In this document: positions 13,968 to 51,273 of the stretch, one piece after another
How positions within the stretch are numbered: the first letter of the stretch is position 1
Layout: each line of letters begins with the position of its first letter
Source: an uncultured Chloroflexia bacterium
GTDB lineage: Bacteria > Chloroflexota > Limnocylindria > Limnocylindrales > CSP1-4
DNA: 64,000 nucleotides
NCBI GenBank assembly: GCA_963712745.1
Contig: CAVQJC010000006.1
Location: 128,001-192,000 of the forward strand
Reading direction: 5' to 3'
Position numbers and translations under genes: made by a program
The notes under the pieces: generated by a model
Databases searched by the model: none
What the model was told of the DNA's origin: nothing
The model's input: the letters and a program-made list of their open reading frames with translations, nothing else

Positions 13968-14048
13968 CACCCTGCGCAGAGTCGAGCGCGAGGGTCGGCG
14001 GCGGCACCCCCCGTCTGCCGCGATCCTCGATAGATGAGGAGCGAACCG

Positions 14049-15155
14049 ATGCCGAGAACCACTCTACCCACGGTATGGGCGCGCCGAACGTCTGCCATCC
14101 TGGCTGCCGTCGTGCTTACCCTTTCTGGCGCAGCGACGGTCGCCGCCGCCGAGCATCCGAGCGTCATCCCCGATCTGGTGCCCAAGGCCGAGCTGCCCCT
14201 GGCGCCTGATAGTGAGGTCAACGTCTCGTACGCACCCGAGGTCCCACCCGCATCCGGCCGCACCGAGCCGGCCCTGGTCGAGGTCGCCTTCGAGGTAGCC
14301 GAGAACGTGACCGCCATCGACCCGGCGACCGGCGTCGAGTACGAGACCTGGGGCTATCGCCTGCCGGGCGACGAGGGCGCGGTCTCAGGCACGCCGGGCC
14401 CCATGATCCGAGCTCGAGTCGGCGACGTGCTCCGCTTCACCATCACCAACCCGGAAGGCAACGTGATGCCGCACAACGTGGACTTCCACGCGGTCACCGG
14501 GCAGGGCGGCGGCGCAGCCTACACCGTGGTCGCACCGGGCATGACGGCCGTCATCGAGGCCCGTCTGCTCTATCCGGGCTTCTTCATGTATCACTGCGCC
14601 ATGGGCGACGTGCCCGAGCACATCTCGCACGGCATGTACGGCGGCATCCTCGTGGACCCGGCGGAGCCGCTGCCGGAGGTCGACCACGAGTGGTACATCG
14701 TGCAGTCGGAGTTCTACACCACCTCGACCGAGCCGGGCCTGGTCGAGACAGACCGAGCCGCCATCACCGCCGAGCAGCCCACGATGGTCGTGTTCAACGG
14801 CGCGAAGGGTGCACTCACCGGTGACAACGCTCCCGTGATGCAGGTCGGCGAGCGTGCGCGGATCTACTTCGTCAACGCCGGCCTCAACCTCATCTCCAGC
14901 TTCCATCCCATCGGTTCCCACTGGGACGTGGTGTACCAGGAGGCGGCCCTGCTGAACGAGCCGTTGCGCGGCTCCCAGACGACGCTCGTGCCGGCCGGCG
15001 GAGGCACGGTGGTAGAGCTCATCGGACAGGTCCCGAGCACCATCATCCTTGTCGACCACGCGCTGGCTCGCACGTTCGACAAGGGCGCGCTCGGGATGGT
15101 CATGGTACAGGGTGAGGAGGATCCGGAGGTCTTCGAGGCCATCCCCGTCGAATAG
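14049..15155 (+). CDS. nirK: Copper-containing nitrite reductase
   Basis: Signal peptide. Cu-ligand and catalytic motifs 'PHNVDFHA', 'YHCA...EHISHGMYG', 'SSFHPIG', 'LVDHA'. Confidence 0.9.
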   Translation: MPRTTLPTVWARRTSAILAAVVLTLSGAATVAAAEHPSVIPDLVPKAELPLAPDSEVNVSYAPEVPPASGRTEPALVEVAFEVAENVTAIDPATGVEYETWGYRLPGDEGAVSGTPGPMIRARVGDVLRFTITNPEGNVMPHNVDFHAVTGQGGGAAYTVVAPGMTAVIEARLLYPGFFMYHCAMGDVPEHISHGMYGGILVDPAEPLPEVDHEWYIVQSEFYTTSTEPGLVETDRAAITAEQPTMVVFNGAKGALTGDNAPVMQVGERARIYFVNAGLNLISSFHPIGSHWDVVYQEAALLNEPLRGSQTTLVPAGGGTVVELIGQVPSTIILVDHALARTFDKGALGMVMVQGEEDPEVFEAIPVE

Positions 15156-36615: not shown

Positions 36616-37404
36616 CTAGCCGGACCGGTCGTGCAGCATCGCGGCCAGCAGCTCCTTCGTATAGGGCTCCCGCGGGTCCTCGAAGACCTCTTCACGCGTG
36701 CCCGTTTCCACGATCCGTCCGTCGCGCATGACCGAGACGCGATGCGCGATATGGCGGACCACCGCGAGGTCATGCGCGATGAACAGGTAGCTCAGGCCGC
36801 GCTCCGCCTGCAGGTCCATCAGCAGGTTGAGGATCTGGCCCTGGACCGAGACGTCGAGGGCGGACACCGGCTCGTCGCAGATGATGAGGTCGGGCTCCAG
36901 GGCCAGGGCCCTGGCGATGCCGACACGTTGCAGCTGCCCCCCGGAGAACGAGGACGGTCGACGGTCACCCAGGACCGGGTCGATACCGACCCGCTCCAGC
37001 AACTCGTCTGCACGGCGATGACGCTCATCGCGGTCATACAGCCGGTGGATGACCCAAGGCTCGGCCACGATGTCGCGGACCCGGAAGCGCGGGTCGACCG
37101 AGGAGAACGGGTCCTGATAGATCAGCTGCATGTGCCGCCGCATCCGACGCAACGCAGCACCCTCCAGAGCGAAGAGGTCCTCACCGCGGAACGTGGCGGT
37201 ACCGGCATCGGGCTCGAGCAGCCGCAAGAGGATGCGTCCGGTGGTGGACTTGCCAGAACCCGACTCACCGACCAGGCCATGCGTCTGGCCCGCATCGACG
37301 CGGACGTCCACGTTCTGCACCGCGCGCACGACGCGCCGTTTCCTTCCCCGGCCGCTGGCGAACGCCTTGGAGAGGCCGCGCGCGTCAAGCAGTAGCTCAC
37401 CCAT
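36616..37404 (-). CDS. Opp/Dpp ABC ATPase, OppF-like, convergent on the permease operon
   Basis: GESGSGKST, 'QDPFSS', FSGGQLQR, 'DEPVSALDVS', 'HDLAVV'. Confidence 0.9.
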   Translation of the reverse strand: MGELLLDARGLSKAFASGRGRKRRVVRAVQNVDVRVDAGQTHGLVGESGSGKSTTGRILLRLLEPDAGTATFRGEDLFALEGAALRRMRRHMQLIYQDPFSSVDPRFRVRDIVAEPWVIHRLYDRDERHRRADELLERVGIDPVLGDRRPSSFSGGQLQRVGIARALALEPDLIICDEPVSALDVSVQGQILNLLMDLQAERGLSYLFIAHDLAVVRHIAHRVSVMRDGRIVETGTREEVFEDPREPYTKELLAAMLHDRSG

Positions 37405-37616
37405 GCGTCGCAGCGTAGCGTCCCCAGGCCGCAGACAGGCCGGGCCGGCGAGCCGACCCGGGCAGATGGGACTCCCGATACCCAACGACCCGGTTGCACG
37501 GTGCTCGATCTCTTCAGCCCGCCCAGCAAGAAGACGGGGGTCGATCGGACCTAGCCCCGATGGCAGGCCACGCGGCCGTCACCGCTGACGATCAGAGCGA
37601 GCCTGCCGCCCCTCTG

Positions 37617-37889
37617 TCAGGACGTCGCCGCGTCGTCGGCTTCCCCCTCCACGTCGATGGAGACGAGGCGAAGGTCGGTCGGCTCGTCGGTCTCGGTGAG
37701 ATGGAGTACGGCACCCTCGGCTGGCGTGCCAGTGGCGTGCTGTTCCCAGTGGAAGCGGAGGGCGTCCTCGGAGACGCGGGCCAGCGCTCCGGCCTCGAGA
37801 TAGACCGAGGTGACGCGAGCGGCCCCGGCCCCCGCGGCTTCTTCCACGACGATGTCCAGGATGCGGTCGACGATGCCGGCTTCGTGCAC
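37617..37889 (-). CDS. hypA: HypA-like nickel metallochaperone lacking the Zn finger
   Basis: N-terminal MHE, 'LEAGALARVSEDALRF', 'GTPAEGAVL', C-terminal 'LRLVSIDVE'. Contains no cysteine. Confidence 0.8.
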   Translation of the reverse strand: MHEAGIVDRILDIVVEEAAGAGAARVTSVYLEAGALARVSEDALRFHWEQHATGTPAEGAVLHLTETDEPTDLRLVSIDVEGEADDAATS

Positions 37890-37996
37890 GTGTACCTCCG
37901 AGAGCGGATGGATGGGGCCGGGCAGGGGCCCTTGTCAGCCGAGAGTCTCGCTGATTGACACCCGGATCGCCTCTGCCGCTGCCCGAGGCGAGGGCC

Positions 37997-38596
37997 TCAG
38001 GCGGGCACCGCCGCCTTGCCCTCGATCAGGGCCATGGCCCTGTCCACCACCTCGGGCACCGCCGCCTCCACGAGCTCGGTCATACCTCCGCCTACGGTCC
38101 AGTAGTCCCCCGCCTCGACGGCCACGATGACCAGGTCAGCCGGCACCTCCAGGCCAAGAGCACGGGCCACATCGAGCGTCTCCAGGATCCCGATGTAGTG
38201 AGGCGAGGAGCCTCGAGGACCATCGAGGTCGCTCTCCTTCAGCTCAAGCACCGTGCCCGGGTCAGCCGCCCCGGTGACGACTGAATCGATGATGATGAGC
38301 CTGGAAGCCCCCACGACCGCGTCGAGCAGGTACATGCCGGTCAGGGCAGTCTCCACGAGCTCGACCCTCCCGACCCGTGGGAGTGCGAAGGCGCGCACCG
38401 TCAACGCCGGGTCGACCGCGTCCTTCGGATCGGCCGGCGTTCCGGCGAGAGCGAGACGTCCGATGAGCGCGCGAGCCGCGACGATGCCCACGCCATCATC
38501 CGAGATCAGCTCGTTGCCCAGGCACAGTACCCGGGTAGACCCACCGACGGCACCGCTCCGCTCGGCGGTGCCGTTACTCGCGGTGGAGACTTCCAT
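37997..38596 (-). CDS. Hydrogenase maturation endopeptidase
   Basis: 'LCLGNELISDDGVG', 'IIIDS', 'SSPH'. Directly downstream of the large subunit gene. Confidence 0.88.
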   Translation of the reverse strand: MEVSTASNGTAERSGAVGGSTRVLCLGNELISDDGVGIVAARALIGRLALAGTPADPKDAVDPALTVRAFALPRVGRVELVETALTGMYLLDAVVGASRLIIIDSVVTGAADPGTVLELKESDLDGPRGSSPHYIGILETLDVARALGLEVPADLVIVAVEAGDYWTVGGGMTELVEAAVPEVVDRAMALIEGKAAVPA

Positions 38597-40127
38597 CGGA
38601 GTCGCGGCGGAGCAACGAGACTGGCTCGCCGTCCGAGCCCCGCACCGCCACGATCAGCGGCATGCTCCCAGGAAGGGAGTGAGTGGCACAGGCATGGCAG
38701 GGGTCGTACGCACGGAAGGCCATCTCCACCTTGTTGAGGATGCCCTCGGACACCGTCCCCTTCGAGATCAGCCCCTCTGCCGCCTTCTGCACGCTCATCG
38801 CGATGCGCGCCGAATTGTTCTGAGTTGCGACGATCAGGTTGGCCTTCTCGATGATGCCGCGAGAGTCGGTGACGTAGTGATGGAAGAGTGTGCCGCGAGG
38901 CGCTTCCACCACCCCGACACCCTCGTGCGGCGTCTTGGTGGGCAGGGTACGAACCTCCGGGTCGACGAGCTCCGGGTCGTCAGCCAGCTCCTTGAGGCGC
39001 TCCGCCGCGTAGAGCAGTTCCACGACCCGGGCCCAGTGGTTGGCCAGGGTATGGTGCACCGGCTTGCCGCCGAGCGTGGAGTACATCTCCTCGTACGCCT
39101 CCTGGGCCAGCGGAGTGGCCATGGCGTCAGCGGCATTCAGCCGGGCCAGAGGTGCGACCGAGTAGATGCCGCTCTCAGGACCTTCGGTGAAGCCGTTCCA
39201 GCCCACCGGCTTGAGGTAGCAGAACTTGGTGTATGACCAGGGCTCGACATGCTCCGCCACGATGTCGAGGTAGTCGGCGGCGTCGAAGGTCCTCCATTCG
39301 CTACCCTCGGGACTGACCACGCGGATGCGCCCGTCGTAGAAGTTGGGCCGCACCTGCTCGTCCATGAGTCCCATGTAGTAGGTGCGGTGGGTATAGGCGT
39401 CGGAGACGATCAGGTCGACGTATGCCGGGTTGGCCAGCACGACCGAGTGGAAGAGGTCCAGGGTAAAGCGAGCGAAATCCACCGCATCCGCGGCCGTCTC
39501 CTTGATCTGTGCCTGGTCCTCCGCCGTGACGCGCTTGGCGACGCCCCCCGGCAGCCCGAGGACAGGGTGGATGACCTTCCCGCCCGTCATGGAGATGATC
39601 TCCCGCAGGCGGCGTCGCATGGAGATCACCTTCAGCCCGGCCTCTTCGCCCACGGTGGCGATGACGCCGAGGACGTTGCGTTGGGCGGCTGGCGCCTCCG
39701 GGCCCACGACGAAGTCGGGACCGCCGAGGAAGTAGAAGTGCAGCGCGTGGTCCTCGACCATGAATGCCGAGTAGACGAGCTCGCGAATCTTCTTGGCCGC
39801 CGGCGGTGGCTCTACCTGGTAGAGCGCGTCGAGCGCCTTGGTGGCCGCCATGTGATGCGCCGTCGGGCAGACACCGCAGATGCGGGAGGTGATCTGGGGC
39901 ATGTCCTCGGCAGGGCGGCCCTGGGCGAACTTCTCGAACCCACGCAACTCCGGGACCTGGAAGTAGGCACGATCCACGTCCCCCGCCTCGTCGAGGAAGA
40001 TGTCGATCTTGCCGTGCCCTTCGAGGCGGGTGATGGGATCGATGGTGATGCGGCGTCGGGCGTAGGCAGTCTGGGCCCCCTGGGAACCTCGCTGCCATGC
40101 TTCCTGGGTGGTCATCTCATCGGGCAT
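38574..40127 (-). CDS. mvhA: [NiFe] hydrogenase large subunit, Mvh/group 3c type
   Basis: 'TRLEGH', L1 'SRICGVCPTAHH', 'EAPRG', L2 'RAYDPCHACATH' followed by a cleavable C-terminal extension. Confidence 0.93.
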   Translation of the reverse strand: MPDEMTTQEAWQRGSQGAQTAYARRRITIDPITRLEGHGKIDIFLDEAGDVDRAYFQVPELRGFEKFAQGRPAEDMPQITSRICGVCPTAHHMAATKALDALYQVEPPPAAKKIRELVYSAFMVEDHALHFYFLGGPDFVVGPEAPAAQRNVLGVIATVGEEAGLKVISMRRRLREIISMTGGKVIHPVLGLPGGVAKRVTAEDQAQIKETAADAVDFARFTLDLFHSVVLANPAYVDLIVSDAYTHRTYYMGLMDEQVRPNFYDGRIRVVSPEGSEWRTFDAADYLDIVAEHVEPWSYTKFCYLKPVGWNGFTEGPESGIYSVAPLARLNAADAMATPLAQEAYEEMYSTLGGKPVHHTLANHWARVVELLYAAERLKELADDPELVDPEVRTLPTKTPHEGVGVVEAPRGTLFHHYVTDSRGIIEKANLIVATQNNSARIAMSVQKAAEGLISKGTVSEGILNKVEMAFRAYDPCHACATHSLPGSMPLIVAVRGSDGEPVSLLRRDSDGSLHRE

Positions 40128-40140
40128 GTCTCTGGGCTCC

Positions 40141-41123
40141 TCAGGCGTCGACGGGAGTCATCTTGCGCCGGCGCAGCAGTGAACTGGCCAGGCCATAGCG
40201 GTAGAACGTGCCGATGGGGTCAGGGATGCTGTCGAGGGCGGAGTCGATATCCTCGTCCTCGAGGGCCGAGAGCATCGAAGCCACGGCCGACAGGTACTTG
40301 CCACCCTGGTCGTGCACCCTGCTGGTGGGACCGAAGCAGCCGGTACAGGGCATGTTCCCGTTGATGCACAGCTGGCCGCAGCCCGCCCTGGTGGCCGGTC
40401 CCATGCACAACAAACCCTGGGCCAGCAGGCAGGTCTCCTCGTCGATGAGGACCTCGTGGGGACGCAGGAAGCGCTCCAGGCTCAGGTCCTGCGGCTTGGA
40501 CTCGAGGCGGGGGCACTCCTCGCACAGGGAGATGTCTGGCGTCAGGACCGTCCCCGCGGGCGGCAGGTCGCCGCTCAGCAGCGTCTGGACCGCATCGGCG
40601 ATGACGTTCGGCGTGGGCGCGCAGCCCGGGATGTAGTAGTCCACCGACGTGACCTGGTCGAGGACCTGGACCGTTTGGTAGAAGCCGGGGAGGGTCAGCG
40701 TACTCGCCGTTGTGCGGCGTCTTGACCGACGGCAGGACGCCGTCCGGATTGTCGGTCGACGACGTTGTCGAGGTAGACGGCCTGGAAGATGTCATCCCGG
40801 TCCCACAGGTTGGCGAGGGCAGGGATGCCACCGAGATGGGCGCAGGAGCCGAAGGCCACCAGCACCTTCGATTTCCGCCGCAGCAGGTGGGCCATCTCCT
40901 CCTGCTCGGTGGTGCGGATGGAGCCGTTCACGAAGGCGGCCAGGATGGACCCGTCCTCCATGGCCTCCACATCGGCCTTCTTGAAGTCAAGTGCCACCGG
41001 CCAGAAGACGATGTCGACCGCGGCGACCACGTCGAGGATCTGCTCGGCGAGGTCAACGATGGCCTCTTCGCAGCCCCCGCATGAGGAGCACCAGTAGAAG
41101 GCGACCTTCGGCTTGTCGCTCAT
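40141..41123 (-). CDS. mvhG: [NiFe] hydrogenase small subunit (frameshifts at ~40700-40760)
   Basis: 'WCSSCGGC', 'AFGSCAHLGGI', 'IPGCAP', 'CEECP', 'CLLAQGLLCMGPATRAGC...C...PCTGC'. Confidence 0.9.
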
Positions 41124-41608
41124 GCCGTCACCTCCGCCAGCTCTGCGACTTCGGAGAACTCCTCGGCCGGCACTTCCACGTGCAGCGGCCCGAGCTCGTT
41201 CAGGTGCTCCACCATGTCGTTCATCACGTCGCGCAGCTTGTCGGCCTCGGCGGCGGAGATCCACTCGAGGCGGATGCGTTCCTCCTCGATGCCCATGCCC
41301 ACCAGGACCCGCTTCAGCAGCCGGAAGCGGCGCGCCGCCTTGTGGTTGCCCGACTGGTAGTGGCAGTCGCCGAAGTGGCAGCCGCCGATGAGCACGCCGT
41401 CGGCACCGTTGGCGAACGCTTCCATGACGAACTGGGGGTCGACCCGGCCGGAGCACATCACCCGGATGACCCGCGCGTTCGGTGCGTACTTCATGCGCGA
41501 GGTGCCGGCCAGGTCGGCCGCCAGGTAGGTGCACCAGTTGCAGAAGAAGGCGACGATCTTCGGCTCCCAGCCGGCGCCGTCCTGCGGCACTGCGTTCGGT
41601 TCAGACAT
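41120..41608 (-). CDS. mvhD: [2Fe-2S] hydrogenase/Hdr adaptor subunit
   Basis: 'FCNWCTY..AD.AG', 'RVMCSGRVD', 'GGCHFGDCHY', 'WISAAE'. Confidence 0.93.
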   Translation of the reverse strand: MSEPNAVPQDGAGWEPKIVAFFCNWCTYLAADLAGTSRMKYAPNARVIRVMCSGRVDPQFVMEAFANGADGVLIGGCHFGDCHYQSGNHKAARRFRLLKRVLVGMGIEEERIRLEWISAAEADKLRDVMNDMVEHLNELGPLHVEVPAEEFSEVAELAEVTA

Positions 41609-43594
41609 GTGCCAGCACCCCCAGGATCTCCTCGTAGATCTCTTCGTCCTCGAACAGGTTCTGCCGGATCGATCCGGACGGGCAGGCGGCGACGCAGACG
41701 CCACAGCCCTTGCAGAGCACCGGGTTGATCTCCGCCTTCTCGTCCACCCGGGTGATGGCCGTGTAGGGGCAGAGCGGGATGCAGGTCTTGCAGCCCGAGC
41801 ATTCCTCCGTCACCACGTACGCGGTGTTGGGCTCCATCTCGACATAGCCACGGTCGATCAGGGCCAGCGCCTCGGAGGCGGCGGCCCCGGCCTGGGCCAC
41901 GGTGTCGGGGATGTCCTTGGGCCCCTGGCAGGCGCCGGCGAGGAAGATGCCGTCCGTGAACGTGCTCACCGGAGCGAGCTTCGGGTGGCGCTCCATGAAG
42001 AAGCCGCCCGAGGCGCAGGTGATGTTGAAGGTGCGGCGAACGTCCTCGGCGTCGGCCTGCGGCTCCAGGCCGGTCGCCAGGACCAGCATGTCGACGGGGA
42101 TCTTGCGCACCCGGCCGAGCAGCGTGTCCTCCGCCTGAAGGATCACCCTCCCGGTGTCACCGTCCTCCGGGTACACGTCGCGCTACCTTGCCCCGGATGA
42201 AGTGGACCCCCTCCTCGGCGACCCGGTTGTAGAACTCCTCCATGCCCTTCCCGGCCGCGCGGATGTCGATGTAGAAGTTGTAGATCTCCGCCCCGGTCTT
42301 CTCCTTGACCAGGTGCGCCAGCTTCAGGGAGTACATGCAGCAGACACGGGAGCAGTACTCGTTGGTGTTGACGTCGCGACTGCCGATGCAGTGGACGATC
42401 CCCACCGTCTTCGGCGTCCGGCCGTCGCGCAAGGTAACGTGCCCCTCGGTCGGACCCGACGAGTTCACCAGCCGCTCCAGCTCCAGGGCGGTGTAGACCT
42501 CTGGGTAGGCTCCGTAGCCGTACGTCGGGAGTCCGCTTCGGGTCGAAGGTCTTGAAGCCGGTGGCGAGGATGACCGCGCCGACCTCGACCGTGTCGAACG
42601 TCTCCGTCTGCGTGAAGTCGATGGCGTTGCGGTCGGCGCAGACCTCCACGCAGGTCTTCTTGCAGCGACCGCTCTTGAATTCGATGCAGGCCTCCTGGTC
42701 GATGACCACCAACGGCGGCACGGCCTGGGGGAAGGGGATGTAGACCGGCTTGCGCATGCTCAGGCCGAGGTTGAACTCGTCGGGGGTCTTGCCCACCTTG
42801 TAGACGCAGGCGTCGATGCACTCGAGACAGCCGACGCAGGCGTCCTCGACGATGAAGCGCGGCTTGTGGCGCACGGTCACCGTGTAGTTGCCCACGTAGC
42901 CGTCGACGTTGTCGACCTCGGCCATCGTCCACAGCGTGATGTTGGGGTTGGAGCGCACCTCGGTCATCTTCGGAGTGAGGATGCAGGCGGCGCAGTCGAG
43001 CGTCGGGAAGGTCTTGTCGAACTGGGCCATGTGCCCGCCGATCGATGGCTCCCGTTCGACGAGGTAGACATGCTTGCCGGCGTTGGCCATGGTCAGGGCG
43101 GCGTGGATGCCGGCGATGCCGCCGCCCACGACCATCACCGCCGGCGTGACATCGACCCGCTGCCGCTCGAGCGGCTTGTGGAAGCGCACGCGGTGGACGG
43201 CGGCGCGGATGAGGTCCTTGGCCTTGAAGGTCGCCTCGTTCATGTCGATGTGGACCCAGGCATCCTGCTCCCGGATGTTCACCATCTGGAAGAAGTAGGG
43301 GTTGAGGCCGCCCTCCGATGTGGCTCGGCGGAAGGTGGTCTCGTGGAGGCTGGGCGAGCAGGAGGCGACGACGACCCGGTCGAGGCCATTGGCCTTGATG
43401 TCCTCCTTGATGAGCTCCTGGCCGGGGTCGGAGCACATGTACTTGTAGCCCCGGGCCACCGCCACGCCGGGGAGGCCCTCGGCGAACTGGCGCACCGCTT
43501 CCACGTCGACCGTAGCGGCGATGTTGGTGCCGCAGTGGCAGACGTAGACCCCGATCTTCGGCTGGCCGTTACCGTTCGTGTCGGCCCGGTTCAT
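41601..43594 (-). CDS. hdrA: Heterodisulfide reductase subunit A (frameshifts at ~42525 and ~42180)
   Basis: 'GVYVCHCGTNIA', 'YMCSDPGQ', 'NIREQ', GGGIAG, 'DKTFPTLDCAACIL', inserted ferredoxin, 'CIGSRD...YCSRVCCM', 'GACQGPKDIP', C-terminal ferredoxin. Confidence 0.93.
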
Positions 43595-45605
43595 GTGCCG
43601 CTCCTCTGCGCTGCGCCGATCGTCTCTTCCACGACCGTGGTCTCTTCCACGACCGTGGTCTCTTCCACGCCCATGGTCTCTTCCACTAGCTCCACGATGT
43701 CCCGGATGACGAGCGATCCTTCCAGCTCTGTGGTCTTGAGAGCATCACGGAACATGACGAGGTCCTTGGGGCAAGCCACGACCATGGTGGTGACCCCCTG
43801 AAGGCCGGCAGCCTCGCGGACGCGGCTCTCGGCCGGTCGCTCACCGCCGGACGCGGTGTCCTCCATCCAGATCCGCCCGCCACCGGCCCCGCAGCAGTAC
43901 GCGGACGAGCGGTTGCGCGGCATCTCCACCAGCTCGAGCCCCAGCTGCTTCAGGACGCTGCGCGGGGCCTCGTAGACGCCTCCATAGCGGCCTAGGTAGC
44001 ACGGGTCGTGGTAGGTGACCCGGGCGCCGGGGTTCGGGGAGAAGGCGAGGCGGCCCGACGAGATGAGCTCGTCGAGGACCTCGGTGTAGTGCTTGACCTG
44101 CCCATCCAGCCCGTATTCATGCTTGAGGACGAAGTAGGTATGCGGGTCCGTCGTCACGATGGTCTTGAACTGCGATGACTCGAGGGCCGCCGAGTTCTTG
44201 TCCTTCAGCATCTCGAAGAGGCCTTCTTCGCCGAGGCGGCGGATGTCGTTGCCGGCGTTCTGCTCGGCGTCGTAGAGGATCCCGAAGTCCAGGGCCGCTC
44301 GATCGAAGACGCGGGCTGCTGCTCGAGTGACCTCCTGGACCCGAGGGTCGAACGACGCGTAGTCGCCGACGTACCAGAGGTACTCGACAGGCTCCTTGCG
44401 GGCGTCGCGGACCTCGAAATCCAGGTCCCGCGTCCACTTGGGCCGACTGCGCGGCGACTGGCCGAACGAGTTGCCATAACGGGTCATGCCCATGAGCATG
44501 TCCTGGACCCCGGTCCCGACGGCCCCCTCGCCCATCAGATGCCGCCGCATCTGGACGATGAGTGGGACGTGTTCGTTGAAGACGGGGCAACGCTCCATGC
44601 AGGCCATGCACGTCGTGCAGGACCAGATGGCCTCAGGGCCTACCGTATCGATGAGACTCCCCTTCCCGTCACCGTCCGCCGCAGCGAGGACCATCCGCCT
44701 GACGTCATGGATAAGGTCCCGGGGCGAGAGCACCCGCACCGGAGGCGAACGCCGGACAGGCCCGGTCGCAGCGACCACACTCGGCACAGGCGAGGCCGTT
44801 GAACAACTCCCGCCAGGTGAAGTCCTCCAGTCGTGCGGCTCCCTCTGATGGCAGCGGCGTCATCGCCAGGGTCCAGGGAGGCAGTGAAGACGTTGAACGG
44901 CGAGGCCAACAAATGGAGGTGCTTGGAGTACGGCAGGTAGGCCAGGAAGCCCAGCACTGCGAGCATGTGCACCCACCACATCGACAGATACAGCGACTCG
45001 GCAGTCGCTGTAGAGATGCCGCCGAGCCACGAACCGATCAACTCACCGATCGGGCTCCCGCTCACGGCCTCCGGTTCGGCGGCGGCCTTCGCCCCCTGGC
45101 CGACGAGGAAGGTCACCATGAGGAGCGCGATGAGCACGAGGATGAACCCGGCGTCCCGAGACAGCGTCAGTCGCGGCGGCGGGAAAGCGAACCGGCGAAC
45201 GGCCACTCCGGCTAGTGCGACCAGGGTGGCCACGCTCAGCAACTCCATGGGGAAGGTGATCCATGGCACTTCGTCGGCGTACGGGATCGGCAGGAACGGG
45301 AACAGGCCCCGGAGGAGATTCCAGGCGAAGCTGCCCGCGTAGAAGATGAAGGTCCAGAAGATGATGAGGTGGGCCAGCCCCATCCCGAGGTTATCGAACA
45401 TGCGGCGCTGGCCCGCCACGTTGACCACGACGTTCCAGAGCCGGCGCGGGGCCTGATCCCAGCGCGGTTCAGCCCTCCCTCGGCCGACCGTGGTCAGGAT
45501 CATGTAGGCCCGCCGCCCGAAGATGACGCCAACCACCAAGGTGATCGCCCACAGGTAGACGAAGCCGGGGATGCCGAGGTAGGTCGTCGTGGTCGGATCC
45601 GGCAT
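43591..45605 (-). CDS. Membrane cytochrome b / 2x[4Fe-4S] / CCG oxidoreductase (FadF/DUF224/HdrF-EMO type; frameshifts at ~44855 and ~44740)
   Basis: TM domain with His motifs 'GLAHLIIFW', 'WWVHML', 'SKHLH'. Fe-S motifs CAECGRCDRACP and CTTCMACMERCP. 'YHDPCYLGR' and 'CCGAGGG'. Confidence 0.85.
43622..43686. repeat. 18-bp tandem repeat (about 3.6 copies) encoding VEETxx units at the C-terminus of the membrane FeS protein
   Basis: GTCTCTTCCAC recurs at 43622, 43640, 43658 and 43676. Confidence 0.9.
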
Positions 45606-45610
45606 CGGTG

Positions 45611-46598
45611 CTACCCCTTCCGCTTCCTGACCGCCTCCGCCAGCGCCTCCAGGACGTCGGTGGCATCCTCGACGTAGCCGTAGTGCGCGACCGAGAAGAT
45701 GGGGGCATCAGGGTCGGTGTTGACGGCGATGATCGAGATCGGCGTCTCGCATGCCCTCGACGTGCTCGGGAGCGCCGCTGATGCCTGCCGCGACGTACAG
45801 TCGCGGTTTCACGGTCACGCCGGACTTCCCGACCTGGCGCGCGAGTGGGAGCCACGCCTGGTCGATCACCGGCCGCGAGCCACAGACGGCCCCGCCCAGC
45901 ACATCGGCCAACTCCTGGGCGACTTCGAGATTGGCCTCCATGCCGATGCCTCGGCCTACCGAGACGAGGACATCCTGTTGGGCGATGTCGACGTCGCCGA
46001 CCTCTGGGGCTTCGAACTCGAGCAGGCGTACGCGGGAGTCATCGGCCAGCTCGACCGACACATCCTCCACCACAGGCTCGGTGGTACCTCGGCCTGCATC
46101 GGGTGGTCTCGTCCCGGGCATGACAGCGAACACCGTGGGCGCGGACTCGGCCGTCACCGTCACGGCCATCTTCCCGCCGTACAGCAGGCTGGTGGCCTGT
46201 AGCACACCGTCGACCACCGCGACGTCCTGGCAGAAGTTGACGAATGGGGCCTCGAGTCGCCCAGGCAGCAGCCCGAGCAGGTCCCAGCTGACGTTCGTGG
46301 CCGGTACCAGGAGTGCTGCAGGGGTGCGGTCTGCAGCCAGCGAGGCGAGCGCGCGGCTGGTCTGTTCGCCGGTGGCATCGGCGAGGACGGCATGGTCGAC
46401 GTAGAGGACCGCATCGGCCACGCCCAGTGACGCGGACAACTCTCGTATCCCGTGGCCGAGCAACGTGGCCTCGAGACGCACGCCAAGCGAATCGGCCAGC
46501 TCGCGCCCGAGCGCCAGGGTCTCGTATGTGACGTCCGAGATCTCACCCTTCCAGTGATCGACCACCACCCATACGTTGCCTGTCATGTGCATCTCCAT
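45611..46598 (-). CDS. etfA: Electron transfer flavoprotein alpha subunit (frameshift at ~45740)
   Basis: 'VSVGRG', 'GSRPVID..W', 'QVGKSG.TVKP..Y.AAGISGA..H..GM'. Confidence 0.92.
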
Positions 46599-47379
46599 CA
46601 GAGCAGACCCCGGTCAGCCAGGAGGTCGGCGACCTTCTCGGCCACGTCCGGCACCGATCCCTCGAGCATCTCTGCATGCCCGGTCACGGTGGGCTTGGCC
46701 ATGGCCGTGACCCGGACCGCATCCGCTGACTGTTGCGCTCACGGCTGTGGCGTCCTCGATGCCCCCCGAAGCCATGGCGGCTCGGACCTTGGCGATCGGG
46801 ACATAGCGCGGTGGCTTCTCACAGCCCTGGACGCCGATGAAGGCAGGAAGGGCGATCTCGAAGCGTCCCATCACGCCGCCGGCGTATTCCTTGGACGCGA
46901 CGGCCACCCCGGCGCCGGGTGCGACCGCGATGCGACTGACCAGGCCCAGGTATGGCAGGTCGAGCGCCGAGGCGAGGAGCGGCGCCGTGAACCCGTCGAG
47001 ATCGTCGATGGCCTGGCAGCCGCTGAGCACCATGTCCGCTGGGAGCGACATCGGGGATGCTGGGGAGCGTGGCGGCCAGCGTGGCGGCCAGGGAGCGGGA
47101 GCCCGCGCCGTCGGCGGCCCCCGAGACTTTGACTACGCGGTCGGCGCCCTTGGCCAGCGCGGTATAGAGCACGTCATCGACCTCGGGCGCTTCCGGCGCC
47201 ACCACGGTCACGTTCGCCTCCAGGCGATCCTTCAGGAGCAGCGCCTGCTCCAGGGCATAGTCGTCGCGCTCGTTGACGATGAACCGCAGGTACTCCTGGT
47301 CGAGCGAGGTGCCGTCACCGGCGACCTCCAGCTCCTCCACGATGTCGGGCACCATCTTCATCAGGACTAGGATCTTCAT
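46598..47379 (-). CDS. etfB: Electron transfer flavoprotein beta subunit (frameshifts at ~47050 and ~46720)
   Basis: 'MKILVLMKMVPD', 'NERDDYALEQAL', 'ALAKGAD', 'GCQAIDD', 'PRY'. Confidence 0.9.
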
Positions 47380-47427
47380 GGCGCCAGCACTTCCTCCTTG
47401 CGCGGCCTTGCCTCGGATCTTGGTCGG

Positions 47428-48627
47428 TCAGTCATCTAGTGCCTCGGCGACCAGCTCCATCACGTCCCGTACTACCATGCGGTCGTCGTACCCAAGCACC
47501 TTCAGGGAGTCCTCGAAGCGGGGAACCTCGTAGGGGCAGGACACCGCCAGCACGTCCGCGCCTGTGGCGATGGCCTCTGCCACCCGGCGGTCGGACAGAC
47601 GAGGATGTCCCTTGGCCTTGTAGTGGGTGTCGAGCCACATCCCGCCACCGCCACCACCGCAGCAGATGGTGTCGTCCCGGTTGTGGGTCATCTCGACGAG
47701 GCTCACGCCGGGCAGGGCCTCTAGGATGCGGCGCGGCTCATCGTGCATGTGGTTGTGCCGGCCAAGCACGCAGGAGTCGTGGTACGTGATCCGGTACCCG
47801 AGCTCCCGGGTAAGGCGCGGCTTGAGGGCGTCGAGATGGTTCGCCAGGAACGGTGTGGTGTGGTGCACGGGGCGATCCAGCCCGAGGGCCGGATACACGT
47901 AGCTGAAGGCATCGAAGGCGTGCGGATCCGAGGTGAGCAGCGAAGCGTACGCGTACTTCCCGAAGGTGGCCATGTTCTGTTCCCGCAGGGTGTCGAACAG
48001 GCCTCGCTCGCCCGCCAGGCGGGCACACTCCCCGGCGCACTTCTCCTCGGCCCCCAGGATGGCGAAGTCGATCCCGAGGGTAGCCAGGACCCGTGCGGTG
48101 GCCCGTGCGTTGTCCTGGCCGCGCGGGTAATACGCGGCGTAGCACTCGACGACCCACAGCACGTCGACTGGCCGACCCAGGTCGCGCAGGATAGGGACCG
48201 GCACCTCCGCGCTTTCTGTCCAGGCCGCCCTCTTGCGCGGCGATTCACCCATCGGGTTGCCGTAGCGCATCGTGTTCGAGAGCGCGCTCTGCAACTCCGC
48301 GGGCACCTCGGGGAGCTGGATCAGCAACTGCTCCTTGACCACGGGTAGGAGGACATCGGTGAGGTGGAGACCACGAGGGCACTTGGCCCAGCAGTCATAG
48401 CAGGTGACGCAGCTGAGCAGGTCGTCGCTGTTGATCACCTCGTCGATGAAGCCCTCCCGCAGCATGCCGATGAGGCGGCGCGGGGTGAAGTGCATCACGT
48501 CGCCATAGGGGCATGCGCCGGCGCAGGTCCCACACTGGATGCAGCTCAGCAGCGGCCGGCCCTCGGGCGAGGAGAGGAGACCGTCGAGCGTGAGGTCCGG
48601 GGTCTCAAGCATGGTCGCCGTTGCCAT
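47428..48627 (-). CDS. Soluble HdrD-like protein (2x[4Fe-4S] plus CCG domains)
   Basis: CIQCGTCAGACP, CVTCYDCWAKCP, 'YHDSCVLGR', 'CCGGGGG', 'SCP'. Start inferred at 'MATATMLET'. Confidence 0.85.
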   Translation of the reverse strand: MATATMLETPDLTLDGLLSSPEGRPLLSCIQCGTCAGACPYGDVMHFTPRRLIGMLREGFIDEVINSDDLLSCVTCYDCWAKCPRGLHLTDVLLPVVKEQLLIQLPEVPAELQSALSNTMRYGNPMGESPRKRAAWTESAEVPVPILRDLGRPVDVLWVVECYAAYYPRGQDNARATARVLATLGIDFAILGAEEKCAGECARLAGERGLFDTLREQNMATFGKYAYASLLTSDPHAFDAFSYVYPALGLDRPVHHTTPFLANHLDALKPRLTRELGYRITYHDSCVLGRHNHMHDEPRRILEALPGVSLVEMTHNRDDTICCGGGGGGMWLDTHYKAKGHPRLSDRRVAEAIATGADVLAVSCPYEVPRFEDSLKVLGYDDRMVVRDVMELVAEALDD

Positions 48628-48920
48628 CGGTCGCTCCCCACTGTTCATCGATCTGGGCCGGCCGCCGCTCACGCGGGCTTGATGACCGTCCCGTTCTATC
48701 AGGGCGAACCTGCCGATCCGTTCTCGACCGACCAGGGCGCCGGTTGCGGTAACTTGGATTGCGCGGGGGGGAACGTATCGAGTCTCAGTGGCGCTGCACG
48801 GCTGCAAACAGTGCCGATAGGACCTCGTGGCCCGGGCCGAAGGCAACGGGAAGGTCGATCCGCCCATGATGGCCGCCGGAACCGATCGATCGGACTCGCC
48901 ACATGAAACGTCGCCACCAC

Positions 48921-48954
48921 GGTTGGCACCCTCACCGGGGTTGGCATCCTCATC
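48921..48954. promoter_or_regulatory. Tandem direct repeat in the divergent promoter region (putative regulator site)
   Basis: GGTTGGCACCCTCACC (48921-48936) and GGTTGGCATCCTCATC (48939-48954), 18-bp period. Confidence 0.45.
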
Positions 48955-49081
48955 AGGCTCCGTCGCGTCGTCGGCGTATAGTGGAGCGAGGTCGTCGACA
49001 TGGCTGTCCTCGACGACGCGACGGGGGTACTGGGCCGCATCGCGTATGCGTGGCCCGACATCACCAGAGGGGGGTCCGTGA

Positions 49082-49348
49082 ATGCATGAAGCCGGCGTGA
49101 CCGAACGCATCCTGGAGATCGTCCTCCAGCACGCGAAGGAAGCCCACGCCACACGGGTGACCGACGTCTACCTGGAGGTGGGCGAGGAGTCGGGTATCGA
49201 CACCGACTCCGTCGAGCTCCACTGGCCGCTCCTCGCGGAAGGCTCCGTGGCCGAGGGCTCGATCCTGCACTTCGACACCAAGGAGGATGAGCCGTTCTCC
49301 TTCCGACTGACCAGCATCGAGGTCGACGAGGCAGTCGTCGCCGGCTGA
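49082..49348 (+). CDS. hypA: Second HypA-like protein lacking the Zn finger, divergent from the operon
   Basis: 'MHEAGVTERILEIVL...LEVGEESGID..S.ELHW...GSVAEGSIL...FRLTSIEV'. Contains no cysteine. Confidence 0.8.
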   Translation: MHEAGVTERILEIVLQHAKEAHATRVTDVYLEVGEESGIDTDSVELHWPLLAEGSVAEGSILHFDTKEDEPFSFRLTSIEVDEAVVAG

Positions 49349-49431
49349 CACGACTGGGCGCGTCTCCCCTGCGCCCGGCTGAAGGACCGCAGAAGCAGCC
49401 CCTCGGGCCGGCCCGCGGGGCTCGTCCATGC

Positions 49432-51273
49432 CTAGGGTTCGGACTCCCTGGGCAGCGGCACGAAACGAACCGCATCGAACGCCACGCGCCGGCCGAGCGA
49501 GCCACTCTCGCCGGTCTTGTCGATGAGCTGGACGACCGAGGTCGGGGTCAGCTGGTGGACGCCCAGGCCGACCCAGCGGCCAGCACCCTTCTGCTGGTCA
49601 CGGGTCCTCCTGACCCAGCCGTCGGGTGTCCTGATCTTGTAGGTGGCGCTGCGAGTGGCAGCGTCCTGGCGTGGGATGTGGGCGAGGACCTGGTAGCGGC
49701 CGGCCGGCAGCTCCGGCCTCCAGACGGCATACCGCTCCCGAGTCCCGACCCTCGTGGGCGCCCAGAAGTGATGATCGGCGTAGCCGCTGGTCGCCTGTCG
49801 CCAGCCCGATCCGTAGCGGCGGAACCCTGGGTCGAGATCGTCGACATAGACCGTCACCGGCTCCGGAGCGCAGCGCTCTGCGAGCGCGCCCGCGTCGAGC
49901 CGTCCTCCACTCACGGTCAGTCCCGCCAGCGAGTCCGTGGCCGCAGCGGTCTCGATGAGCCGCGCGTGGATCTGACGCGCCGTCAGGGCCGGGTCGAGGC
50001 TGGCACACAGGGCCGCGGCTCCACTGACGTGAGCCGCGGCCATGCTGGTGCCGGTGTAGCCGGCGTAGCCCTCGACCCCATCGGGGTGAGTGCTGCTGAT
50101 GCCCGTGCCCGGCGCGCCCAGGTCCACGCCCGCTGCACCCCAGTCCGAGTCGGGACGCCGAGCTCCGTCCGGCTGCAGGTTGGCCACGGCCATGAGGCAG
50201 TCCCAGCCGCGGTCGCTGCCGTCGGCACGTGTGGCACAGCGGTAGGCCGCCGGATACACGGGCGCGCGGTCGATATCCCGGCCCTCGTTCCCGGCCGCGG
50301 CCACGAACAGGATGTCGGCATCGCCGGCACGGGCGATGGCGTCGGCAAGCGCCTCACTGTGGCCACCTCCGCTCCAGCTGTTGTTGGTGGCCACGACACG
50401 CAGGCCGTGACGCAGCTTGAGGTCGGTGATGTAGTCGAGCGCCGCGATCGCGTCGCTGATGTACCCACCGCCGGGGCCCATGAACCTGGCCGGGATGAGC
50501 GTCACGCGCCAGCTCACGCCGGCCACACCGCGGCCGTTGCCGCCTCGAGCGCCGATGGTGCCCGCCACGTGAGTTCCGTGATCGTCGGCCGCACCGTGGT
50601 AGACGGTGGCGTCGCCGCCGAGGAAGTCCCAGCCATGGATGTCGTCGATGTAGCCGTTGCCATCGTCGTCGCGTCCGTTGACGGACTCCCATGGGTTGGT
50701 CCAGACGTTCGGCTCGAGGTCCGGGTGCGTGATCTTGACACCCTCGTCGACGATGCCCACGTGGACCCCGGCCGAGCCGATGCGACCGTCCGCCCAGGCT
50801 TCGCCGGCGCCTGTACCGAAGGCGTTGGCGTGCGGCACGGTCCCGTCGCCGTACATGCCCCAGAGATCGCCCCTGGCGTACCACGGGTCGTCGGCGGTAG
50901 CCGCCGGCCACACCCGGTAGTCCGGCTCCACCCATGCGACGCCCCGGCGTGCGCCGATGCTCAAGAGGGCGGAACCCACGGAGGTACCGCGCACCAGGCG
51001 CACCACCGCCGTGTCCTCCGCCAGGGGCGAGACCGGTCGCCCGGCCGAGGTGCCGGCGGCTGAGACGGCGAGCTTCCTCTTCGCCTTGGAGGCTCCGGCC
51101 TTGAACCCGACGATGACGCGATCGGGAGCGTGTGGTCGGGCCAGGGCCCTGGCCACGCCGGCGTCGTCAGCGCTGGCCACAGCGGCTGCTGCCACCGGGG
51201 CAGCCAAGGCGACCAGCAGGAGTCCGGCCAGGAAGGGACGGCGAGCGTGCGGCCGCGTGGCAGACGTGTCCAT
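49432..51273 (-). CDS. Secreted S8 subtilase with a C-terminal golvesin/CBM-like beta-sandwich
   Basis: Catalytic triad 'GIVDEG', 'HGTHVAGTI', 'GTSMAA' and oxyanion 'AAAGN'. C-terminal 'GRYQV...WVGLG...AFDAVRF'. Confidence 0.9.
   Translation of the reverse strand: MDTSATRPHARRPFLAGLLLVALAAPVAAAAVASADDAGVARALARPHAPDRVIVGFKAGASKAKRKLAVSAAGTSAGRPVSPLAEDTAVVRLVRGTSVGSALLSIGARRGVAWVEPDYRVWPAATADDPWYARGDLWGMYGDGTVPHANAFGTGAGEAWADGRIGSAGVHVGIVDEGVKITHPDLEPNVWTNPWESVNGRDDDGNGYIDDIHGWDFLGGDATVYHGAADDHGTHVAGTIGARGGNGRGVAGVSWRVTLIPARFMGPGGGYISDAIAALDYITDLKLRHGLRVVATNNSWSGGGHSEALADAIARAGDADILFVAAAGNEGRDIDRAPVYPAAYRCATRADGSDRGWDCLMAVANLQPDGARRPDSDWGAAGVDLGAPGTGISSTHPDGVEGYAGYTGTSMAAAHVSGAAALCASLDPALTARQIHARLIETAAATDSLAGLTVSGGRLDAGALAERCAPEPVTVYVDDLDPGFRRYGSGWRQATSGYADHHFWAPTRVGTRERYAVWRPELPAGRYQVLAHIPRQDAATRSATYKIRTPDGWVRRTRDQQKGAGRWVGLGVHQLTPTSVVQLIDKTGESGSLGRRVAFDAVRFVPLPRESEP

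Follow-up and report, generated by a model that had tools for sequence, protein, structure and literature searches.

An operon joining an Mvh-HdrA hydrogenase module to an electron-transfer flavoprotein and an EtfD-type membrane protein in an uncultured Chloroflexia bacterium

Among the closest described relatives of the system analyzed here is MvhADG-HdrABC, the H2:CoM-S-S-CoB/ferredoxin electron-bifurcating complex of methanogens (CoM and CoB being coenzymes M and B). Hydrogenases of the Mvh type (group 3c) accompanied by HdrA are common in non-methanogenic bacteria of soils and sediments, which have no heterodisulfide to reduce. We investigated what appears to be such a case in a 64,000-nucleotide stretch of contig CAVQJC010000006.1 from an uncultured Chloroflexia bacterium; we refer to this whole stretch as the window. 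In it, an operon of ten genes (37617-48627, minus strand) encodes an Mvh hydrogenase and HdrA together with an electron-transfer flavoprotein (ETF), a soluble HdrD-like iron-sulfur (FeS) protein and an EtfD-type membrane protein, which we call EMO. The window has a G+C content of 68% and belongs to a 4.2-Mb genome in 20 contigs, with 84.6% completeness and 5% contamination. Negative results given below for the genome refer to this 84.6%-complete assembly.

The operon shares with MvhADG-HdrABC (PDB 5ODC and 8RVU) the subunits MvhA, MvhG and MvhD and a full-length HdrA, with the genes in the order hdrA-mvhD-mvhG-mvhA. However, no separate HdrB or HdrC was found here, and we find instead a fused HdrC/HdrB-like protein with incomplete CxxC motifs, an ETF and an EtfD-type protein. 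The host also differs, being bacterial and having both a heme-copper oxidase and nirK. We know of no CoM or CoB metabolism in this host, and none was searched for.

The second close relative is the mycobacterial ETF-EtfD system (PDB 9OJN), whose membrane protein is also called EMO, FeS oxidoreductase/DUF224 or HdrF. According to the available part of the report on its structure (PMC13083937), EtfD is a wire from ETF to menaquinone that is homologous to HdrBC and HdrDE and overlays on an HdrDE model; it was solved and assayed in mycobacteria, where ETF and EtfD form a self-sufficient route to menaquinone. Like EtfD, the EMO of our operon has both heme histidines, two [4Fe-4S] motifs and a CCG domain with most of the ligands of the site called D2, and etfB-etfA lie immediately upstream. 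Unlike EtfD, it is short (635-653 versus 1042 amino acids), its D1 cysteines are replaced and the counterpart of C712 is aspartate. In addition, its gene is translationally coupled to hdrA and is linked to a hydrogenase rather than to beta-oxidation genes.

Two further groups of systems resemble parts of the operon. In EtfABCX and FixABCX, a mid-potential donor reduces ferredoxin and quinone together, and an ETF lies en route to the quinone (from the accessible portion of PMC10734219). In our system, by contrast, H2 would serve as the donor and bifurcation would take place at the flavin of HdrA, while the ETF lacks an arginine needed for bifurcation (70 of 70 motif-matched orthologues) and the quinone reductase is of the EtfD type, not FixC or ETF:quinone oxidoreductase (ETF-QO). 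In HdrDE and, as is generally known, in QmoABC, a cytoplasmic Hdr-type module is coupled to methanophenazine or quinone via a NarI-like cytochrome b, and our operon has a similar layout. It differs from both in having no adenosine phosphosulfate (APS) reductase or heterodisulfide context, and in including an ETF and a hydrogenase within the unit.

The association of these genes has been noted before. A 2021 preprint on the Chloroflexi supergroup (bioRxiv 10.1101/2021.08.23.457424) states, in its available part, that hdrABC, and sometimes ETF genes as well, stand ahead of group 3c hydrogenase genes, and that the association could bifurcate electrons; a figure legend places ETF-QO, ETF beta, ETF alpha and HdrD beside a group 3c hydrogenase. 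This is the same type of neighborhood, which that part of the preprint, Supplementary Text S4 aside, treats in one paragraph and a figure, with no cofactor analysis, cross-phylum survey or mechanism. An anaerobic-digester preprint describes other clusters, namely Bcd-EtfAB-EMO and FdhB-MvhD-HdrABC. Our full-text literature search found no biochemical or structural characterization of the whole unit. An original prediction, made from the sequence of the window before the present analysis, had stated that this exact unit was not known to have been characterized; this agrees with our search, although the gene association itself was already in the 2021 preprint. The modules are known and their association was noted in 2021, while the gene content and homologies of this operon, the conservation of cofactor ligands, the synteny across phyla and the cassette swap are shown here.

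We are highly confident that hdrD-like-etfBA-EMO-hdrA-mvhDGA is a real, conserved functional unit. A search with the C-terminal half of EMO against one genome per species gave 208 relatives, of which the best 80 loci were kept, all on contigs of metagenome-assembled genomes. These loci were chosen through EMO and represent this EMO subfamily, not all EtfD-like proteins; their neighborhoods were counted using intact proteins of the orthologous locus L036 as queries. They are labeled as Chloroflexota (including Candidatus Limnocylindrales), Actinomycetota/Acidimicrobiia, Acidobacteriota, Verrucomicrobiota, Gemmatimonadota, Eisenbacteria, Zixibacteria, Ignavibacteria and Bacteroidota. Wherever 2 kb or more of sequence precedes EMO (70 of 70 loci), etfB-etfA lie directly upstream of it. 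Among the 67 loci with at least 1.5 kb downstream, EMO is followed by hdrA in 42 and by hdrD-like and then hdrA in 23 (65/67); the two exceptions have hdrC-hdrB-hdrA (L056) or no match (L090). When we considered only the 38 loci with a full view (at least 9 kb on both sides), hdrD-like was present in 38, mvhA in 36 and hdrC plus hdrB in 27. Synteny beyond this genome, on which the original prediction had been staked beforehand, is thus conserved (70/70, 65/67, 36/38). Its statement that the unit has no HdrB or HdrC is true of this genome but not of the unit in general, given the 27 clusters that carry both.

Around this core, several architectures were observed. The order hdrC-hdrB-hdrD-etfBA-EMO-hdrA-mvhDGA-hycI occurs in 7 loci, and the window's own architecture, without hdrCB, in 5, plus 1 without a hycI match. 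The acidobacterial form has a second hdrA after hdrC-hdrB; in verrucomicrobial forms, hdrD lies between EMO and hdrA, or mvhDGA is upstream; and in another form mvhG is separated from mvhA by an insertion of a kinase, a regulator and hdrCB. Many clusters also have a Cache-domain histidine kinase and a response regulator (e.g., L036:432-5645, and many of L030-L108), and the ligand of this sensor might show what the system responds to.

We also inferred a tree of 73 HdrA sequences, from which frame-broken HdrAs and those outside 600-720 amino acids were left out. All HdrAs of ETF-type clusters form one clade (Shimodaira-Hasegawa-like approximate likelihood ratio test, 100), far from eight HdrAs of canonical clusters in the same genus as the window, which make up a distinct clade on a long branch (likewise 100). 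Chloroflexota-labeled sequences are nested inside a clade labeled Actinomycetota/Acidimicrobiia (L030-L048), with 83-90% protein identity to the window; this nesting suggests recent transfer between phyla, or else mislabeled bins. The contig of L031, in the same HdrA group, is labeled Alphaproteobacteria.

Within the window, genes were identified by a Pfam search of open reading frames (ORFs), and their starts and junctions were fixed by tblastn with the intact L036 orthologues. The order is hdrD-like, etfB, etfA, EMO, hdrA, mvhD, mvhG, mvhA, hycI and a short hypA (hypA_s1). Gaps of 48 nt (hdrD-like/etfB), 5 nt (etfA/EMO), 13 nt (mvhG/mvhA) and 107 nt (hycI/hypA_s1) separate some neighbors, and the etfB stop and etfA start have base 46598 in common. 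The genes overlap by 4 nt at EMO/hdrA (43591-43594), 8 nt at hdrA/mvhD (41601-41608), 4 nt at mvhD/mvhG (41120-41123) and 23 nt at mvhA/hycI (38574-38596), and these four overlaps argue for one transcript. The original prediction had read the ten co-oriented genes in this order and all five of these shared-base junctions, and these readings hold. However, it extended the operon to 49348, whereas hdrD-like starts at 48627 and position 49348 is the end of a plus-strand gene, hypA_s2. Moreover, while the gene content and order were right, etfB, etfA, EMO, hdrA and mvhG are not single ORFs, since each contains frame shifts that had gone unmentioned and that we discuss below.

The hydrogenase half of the operon closely resembles its methanogen counterpart. 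For HdrA (41601-43594; Pfam FAD/Fer4 domains; two frame shifts), the L036 orthologue aligns over residues 11-658 of 663 with methanogen HdrA 8rvu_a (E 3e-216), an alignment that takes in the N-terminal FeS domain, the FAD domain and the inserted and C-terminal ferredoxin domains; the three pieces of the window's HdrA are 89-94% identical to it. This supports the earlier identification of HdrA, which is full-length and of the methanogen type. Adjoining hdrA are mvhD (41120-41608, intact; FlpD 2.9e-54), for the [2Fe-2S] adaptor subunit, and mvhG (40141-41123, two frame shifts; Oxidored_q6), for the hydrogenase small subunit, and their L036 orthologues match NCBIfam VhuD (5.2e-40) and VhuG (5.8e-61).

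The large subunit, encoded by the intact mvhA (38574-40127; NiFeSe_Hases), is a [NiFe] protein of the group-3 Mvh/Vhu type. Its top PDB matches are 7t2r_D (1.7e-111), the large subunit of a bifurcating NiFe hydrogenase, and MvhA 5odc_F (3.8e-109), as against 1.7e-96 for the NAD-reducing group 3d enzyme 5xf9_D and 1e-29 to 1e-31 for F420-reducing enzymes. The match to NCBIfam VhuA (3.7e-121, 404.6 bits) is under that model's 800-bit equivalog cut-off. Metal-binding motifs are present at both ends (RICGVCPTAHH and DPCHACATH), and there is a C-terminal extension for proteolytic maturation. Two more [NiFe] large-subunit homologues were seen elsewhere in the genome, on contigs C20 (~545 kb, 38%) and C17 (~301 kb, 26-33%).

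Maturation genes follow. The product of hycI (37997-38596; HycI 9.2e-12), a HycI-type hydrogenase maturation protease, scores 86.1 bits against TIGR00072, with a cut-off of 47.45. The operon's own short HypA-like protein, hypA_s1 (37617-37889, 90 amino acids; HypA 6e-15), and the second one, hypA_s2 (49082-49348, plus strand, divergent from the operon, 88 amino acids; HypA 4.3e-14), both match only positions 1-67 of the 112-position HypA profile and contain no cysteine, so both are without the zinc-binding part. In five Chloroflexota-labeled orthologous loci, hycI is followed by a hypA that is 67-75% identical to hypA_s1.

The membrane protein EMO (43591-45605; weak Nitrate_red_gam, plus Fer4 and CCG; two frame shifts) matches mycobacterial EtfD 9ojn_A with an E value of 5.7e-57 for the C-terminal half encoded in the window, and 2.7e-66 for the full-length L036 orthologue, whose alignment takes in the transmembrane and soluble domains. 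The latter match bears out the original prediction that the membrane protein is of an ETF:quinone type. We compared the EMO orthologues with the ligands given for EtfD in the available text of PMC13083937, namely His78 and His241 for heme b; Cys637, 672, 673, 709 and 712 and His583 for D2; and Cys503, 538, 581 and 584 for D1. The two heme-b histidines (H79 and H213 in EMO) are retained in 63 of 63 orthologues, and the window's N-terminal piece contains GLAHL and SKHLHLL. All eight cysteines of the cubane [4Fe-4S] clusters D3 and D4 are likewise retained (63/63). At D2, three cysteines and the histidine (H471) are invariant and a fourth cysteine is present in 62 of 63, while the fifth, corresponding to C712, is aspartate in all (D597). 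In every orthologue, D, N, D and T/A/S stand in place of the four cysteines that bind the linear [3Fe-4S] cluster D1 in EtfD, and the window shows these replacements too (VGDYAS, EQNAGND, TDPHTY). On this sequence evidence, EMO is predicted to be an EtfD-family ETF:quinone module with a heme-b transmembrane domain, two [4Fe-4S] clusters and one functional CCG site. An in-frame tandem repeat of an 18-nt unit (3.6 copies, 43622-43686) lies at the 3' end of the gene and gives the C-terminal tail TVVEET-type repeats, which the L036 orthologue is without.

The intact gene for the soluble HdrD-like protein (47428-48627, 399 amino acids; CCG 2.8e-21 in two stretches, plus Fer4 families) encodes an HdrC-like domain with two [4Fe-4S] motifs, followed by two CCG domains. 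The protein matches EtfD 9ojn_A with E values of 2.2e-49 / 5.6e-50, and its N-terminus matches HdrC at about 1e-15 to 1e-14. It is in a single frame, is 85.9% identical to its L036 orthologue and is 34% identical to EMO. It is a soluble paralogue of the cytoplasmic part of EMO, in the form of an HdrC-plus-HdrB-type fusion. Across 64 orthologues, the eight Fer4 cysteines, H236, C286, C322, C323, C364 and E367 are invariant, and C162, C197 and C201 of the first CCG domain are retained in 62. H236 lies between the two CCG domains, the second of which thus has four cysteines and an invariant glutamate. Compared with proteins of the HdrDE type, the two [4Fe-4S] motifs are complete in 64/64, but two complete CCG motifs (C...CC...CxxC) are not found: the CxxC of the first domain is [D/G/C]-P-H-A, and the last cysteine of the second is glutamate in all 64.

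In the ETF, etfB (46598-47379, two frame shifts) encodes the small subunit, with the Pfam ETF match falling in separate ORFs for profile positions 9-88 and 89-163, and etfA (45611-46598, one frame shift; ETF_alpha 1.4e-29, ETF 1e-24) the large one. The best PDB relatives of EtfA include the bifurcating ETFs 5ol2_A (159.9 bits) and CarE (153.4 bits), with the non-bifurcating W3A1 ETF at 146.2 bits; the EtfB N-terminus has W3A1 as its top match. The arginine contacting N5 of the bifurcating FAD is needed for bifurcation in the enzymes of T. maritima, A. woodii and R. palustris (available part of PMC10734219). In the TRPAFGG motif of 5ol2_A and 6fah_A, this arginine aligns with Ser135 of L036 EtfA, the column having been placed by matching published residue numbers. 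None of the 70 motif-matched EtfA orthologues has arginine there (S, C, A, V or N is found instead, and one further orthologue has no motif match), and the window's motif, ATSLLYGGK, has none at that position either. The missing arginine fits a plain carrier role for this ETF. In addition, a second, housekeeping-type EtfA (27% identity) is encoded on contig C11, so the operon's ETF is a dedicated copy.

The original prediction had stressed that HdrB and HdrC are missing. Indeed, no CCG-domain HdrB is found among the operon genes, and tblastn of the 84.6%-complete genome, using L036 HdrB and the HdrB of a same-genus relative as queries, returned nothing at 1e-5 to 1e-6; a separate HdrB with two complete CCG motifs and an HdrC, as in MvhADG-HdrABC, were thus not found in this assembly. 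The same holds for orthologues of the cluster-associated hdrC, hdrB, kinase and regulator. Only four CCG matches occur in the genome: the HdrD-like protein accounts for two and EMO for one, and the last is in a YdiJ-like fusion of 962 amino acids (window 3514-6402, plus strand), which combines an FAD-linked oxidase with Fer4 and CCG domains and matches its family at 2.4e-115, below the cut-off. On contig C17 (~320.9-326.4 kb), we observed a second Hdr-like region with several HdrA-like pieces (34-47% identical), an MvhD-like piece and an HdrC-like piece, with no HdrB match.

Close relatives show what may have stood at this site before. When MvhA was searched against 24 same-genus genomes, only G006 had a close match (90%), and nine others had full-length matches at 55-57%. 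In eight of eight relatives, a canonical hdrC-hdrB-hdrA-mvhDGA-(hycI)-hypA cluster, with no etf or EMO match, occupies the same chromosomal site (in G010, for instance, hdrC, hdrB and hdrA encode 213, 333 and 679 amino acids). The flanks are common: an ABC ATPase (36616-37485) is 79-86% identical and an S8 peptidase (49432-51273) 58-65% identical. The hypA that ends the relatives' cluster is 77-92% identical to hypA_s2 versus 44-50% to hypA_s1 (8/8), and hypA_s2 is probably a relic of a displaced canonical hdrCBA-mvhDGA-hycI-hypA cluster. G006 has, directly after its ETF-type operon, both hypA_s2 and a second hycI sharing 77-83% identity with that of the relatives. Given the shared flanks, the canonical cluster of the relatives at this site and the hypA_s2 and hycI remnants, it looks as though the ETF-type operon displaced canonical hdrCBA-mvhDGA in a cassette swap. 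As a consequence, HdrD-like, ETF and EMO stand where HdrCB stand in close relatives. On contig C70 of G006 (L011/L012), the operon points towards hypA_s2 and the S8 peptidase, whereas in the window it points away and the second hycI is gone; this reflects either an inversion with loss, two independent insertions, or a misassembly.

We propose that these genes encode a reversible hydrogenase that bifurcates electrons at a flavin and sends the high-potential branch to the quinone pool and not to a heterodisulfide, and we put the chance that this wiring is right slightly below even. In this scheme, MvhAG would oxidize H2 and MvhD would hand the electrons on to the FAD of HdrA. One electron would go uphill, via the ferredoxin-like domains of HdrA, to ferredoxin. 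The other would go downhill to the HdrC-like clusters of the soluble HdrD-like protein, which would take the place of HdrC on HdrA, then from the clusters of its CCG domains to the FAD of the dedicated, non-bifurcating ETF, and from there through EMO (CCG cluster, two [4Fe-4S] clusters and heme b) to menaquinone. The net reaction would be 2 H2 + Fd(ox) + MQ -> Fd(red) + MQH2 + 2 H+, where Fd is ferredoxin and MQ menaquinone.

The potentials of the participants are -414 mV for H2, about -450 mV for ferredoxin and -74 mV for menaquinone. By this estimate from standard potentials, the coupled reaction would be near equilibrium at about 1e-5 atm (~10 ppm) H2, so either direction is possible, the reverse being H2 evolution. 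With regard to the two similar FeS modules, the available part of PMC13083937 reports that the HdrC-like clusters of EtfD face the heme, D4 being about 7 Å from heme b. If so in EMO, it probably cannot bind HdrA in the canonical manner, which would explain the need for a second, soluble copy in the form of the HdrD-like protein. A shuttle role for ETF between the HdrD-like protein and EMO is plausible, because ETF is known to partner EtfD and each of the two FeS modules resembles EtfD. The presence of a heme-copper oxidase and two 2-oxoacid:ferredoxin oxidoreductase-type genes indicates that the genome has a respiratory chain and ferredoxin-dependent enzymes; a RuBisCO family search of the 84.6%-complete genome gave no match.

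It is important to emphasize that a number of points weigh against this proposal. The wiring is read from gene content and sequence throughout, and we infer which proteins touch, that ETF is the go-between, that a quinone is the acceptor and in which direction electrons flow. As to the quinone type, the MqnA family has no match in the 84.6%-complete genome, in which the classical Men pathway was not searched. Genes for HdrB and HdrC could sit in the missing part of the genome. Because hdrC-hdrB are present in 27 of 38 full-view clusters, the HdrD-like/ETF/EMO set appears in most lineages to be added to HdrBC and not to replace it. With two hdrA copies in the acidobacterial form, the ETF module could have its own HdrA, apart from the hydrogenase. 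Neither CCG domain of the HdrD-like protein has a complete CxxC, and the D1 cluster, whose four cysteines EMO has lost in 63/63, is the outermost cluster of EtfD, which bears on how ETF would dock. Finally, the short-read contigs that bear on the frame shifts are of low depth and may come from related strains, and none of those listed covers the shift at ~44865-44893.

The likeliest alternative, although we regard it as unlikely, is that the operon encodes two enzymes that are only co-regulated: a soluble Mvh-HdrA(-HdrD-like) bifurcating hydrogenase for a thiol/disulfide or other soluble acceptor, and a separate ETF/EtfD pair that feeds quinone from some dehydrogenase. ETF and EtfD by themselves provide the route to menaquinone in mycobacteria (PMC13083937, available part), and an etfAB-hdrF pair without hydrogenase occurs in Desulfobacterium autotrophicum (PMC2702500, available part). 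The retention of hdrC-hdrB in 27/38 and the two hdrA copies of the acidobacterial form also fit, and the Cache sensor kinase and response regulator could co-regulate both enzymes. However, no ETF-reducing dehydrogenase is found in the operon or among the 18 flanking ORFs scanned in four related loci. The original prediction had likewise noted the lack of an acyl-CoA dehydrogenase, and none of the 42 window ORFs scanned outside the cluster matches such a family at E<=1e-8. Moreover, hdrD-like, etfB, etfA, EMO and hdrA stay together through every rearrangement (70/70, 65/67, 38/38), the EMO and hdrA genes overlap by 4 nt, and this ETF is a dedicated copy, the housekeeping-type EtfA being on C11.

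Another arrangement, which we consider improbable, is a Qmo-like wiring in which HdrA binds EMO at its cytoplasmic FeS domain, much in the way that QmoAB binds QmoC, with HdrD-like and ETF as a side input or output for another redox partner. Qmo shows that HdrA-like flavoproteins can attach to a membrane cytochrome b/FeS subunit, and QmoC is the best match (7.4e-20) of an HdrC-like neighbor protein in L036. Gene order also lends itself to this arrangement, hdrA following EMO directly with the 4-nt overlap here and being adjacent in 42/67 loci. However, hdrD-like lies between the two in 23/67 loci, the side of the HdrC-like clusters that is turned towards the FAD of HdrA in HdrABC is turned towards the heme in EtfD, so that the canonical HdrA docking surface is probably taken, and the invariably linked ETF would be left without a role.

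We think it very doubtful that the ETF itself bifurcates, in the manner of EtfABCX or Fix. On such a scheme, NADH would be oxidized at EtfB, one electron would pass via EMO to quinone, and the low-potential one would pass via HdrD-like and HdrA to an H2-evolving hydrogenase. EtfABCX does demonstrate that an ETF with a quinone reductase is able to bifurcate (PMC10734219, available part), and bifurcating ETFs are among the best relatives of EtfA (5ol2_A and CarE). But the non-bifurcating W3A1 is nearly as good a match and is the best for the EtfB N-terminus, the required arginine aligns with Ser/Cys or another small residue (0/70 have Arg, in the column set by residue-number matching), and the complete bifurcating architecture of HdrA would be redundant.

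We turn now to the frame shifts. Using tblastn with the intact L036 proteins, nine frame changes were located across five genes, as matches fell into three frame segments for etfB, EMO and hdrA and two for etfA and mvhG; in mvhG, residues 118-141 are unmatched between the two segments. The sites are near 47038-47054 and 46729-46743 in etfB, 45733-45735 in etfA, 44865-44893 and 44720-44736 in EMO, about 42527 and 42169-42181 in hdrA, and 40760 and 40699 in mvhG. On both sides of each break, the G+C content of third codon positions (GC3) stays at 0.85-0.97 in the shifted frames. The closest relative, G006 (same genus, 87% DNA identity, 520 contigs), has hdrA and mvhG as single ORFs, and relative to it an extra base (+1) stands uncompensated in the window at each of 42529, 42181, 40760 and 40699, so all four comparable changes are of one kind.

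Near-identical short-read contigs from four public metagenome runs have one base fewer at 40698/40699, 40760, 42526 and 46728, and both extra bases of mvhG are missing from the contigs of several runs. Further contig pieces contain exactly one gap: 44463-44855 (2 mismatches), 44591-44864 (3), 45574-45802 (0), 46815-47227 (3) and 42095-42495 (19). These pieces cover four shift sites beyond those at which the base was located. The depth of the short-read contigs is low (3-12), and many are only 90-95% identical and derive from other organisms. Genes outside the operon are broken as well: single G006 ORFs map in two or three frames at ~603, ~10010, ~10290, ~11392 and ~13140 (at least 5 frame shifts in ~12.5 kb comparable with G006), and an ABC_tran domain lies partly in ORF 12688-13236 and partly in ORF 13112-13828. 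Because the changes are +1 relative to G006, the short-read contigs are without the base and breakage is similar outside the operon, the nine frame shifts are most likely errors of a long-read-style assembly, and the living organism most likely has an unbroken operon. Gene calls throughout this assembly will then be fragmented. A GC3-based hidden Markov model (HMM) was also tried as a detector of frame shifts and rejected: it gave 226 candidates genome-wide (0.74 per 10 kb of coding sequence), but controls, consisting of loci from short-read-style contigs and same-genus relatives, scored 0.46-0.57 per 10 kb, so that it does not by itself demonstrate assembly-wide error.

Few contigs combined with 84.6% completeness and 5% contamination are typical of unpolished long-read bins. 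That the shifts are real and the five genes are pseudogenes of a decaying operon is thus hardly credible, in spite of nine frame changes within 11 kb, the loss of hdrCB and of the kinase and regulator genes from the genome and the inversion relative to G006, given the sustained GC3, the uniform +1 insertions, the lack of the extra base in short-read contigs with 99-100% identity over 230-410 nt, the similar breakage of unrelated genes and the assembly statistics.

Other features of the window complete the picture. The spacer of 454 nt between the divergent hdrD-like and hypA_s2 genes (48628-49081) has no coding signal by GC3 profile or HMM, and is the operon's presumed promoter region. A consensus promoter scan of 37300-49400 found 0 promoter-like sites (0.8 expected), and a terminator scan of the same region gave 2 terminator-like sites (2.9 expected), both of them plus-strand; neither count is informative. 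The original prediction had noted nirK in the same genome; this gene, for a copper-containing nitrite reductase, is in the window at 14034-15155 on the plus strand (TIGR02376, 300.6 bits versus a cut-off of 296.3).

For bacteria that have Mvh and HdrA, the cluster offers a concrete, testable answer as to what accepts electrons from the high-potential branch, namely an ETF that would pass them by way of an EtfD-type protein to the quinone pool. Sister genomes with the canonical hdrCB version at the same locus provide a natural comparison, and the sequence differences from the solved EtfD can direct mutagenesis and structural work. In a broader view, which we advance tentatively and hold to be possible rather than probable, the cluster may represent a widespread H2:menaquinone/ferredoxin bifurcating hydrogenase of respiring bacteria from soil, sediment and freshwater, with at least nine phylum labels, in which a methanogen-type Mvh-HdrA core has, in place of the heterodisulfide branch, two HdrBC-like FeS modules, a soluble one on HdrA and one anchored to heme b in the membrane, with the flavin of a dedicated ETF swinging from the one to the other. 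If true, this would explain the role of Mvh-Hdr in organisms without CoM and CoB, and the enzyme would be a bifurcating one of a new class, in which H2 is linked directly with the quinone pool. If bifurcation occurs as proposed, respiring bacteria could make reduced ferredoxin from low H2, or could shed electrons as H2 once O2 is gone.

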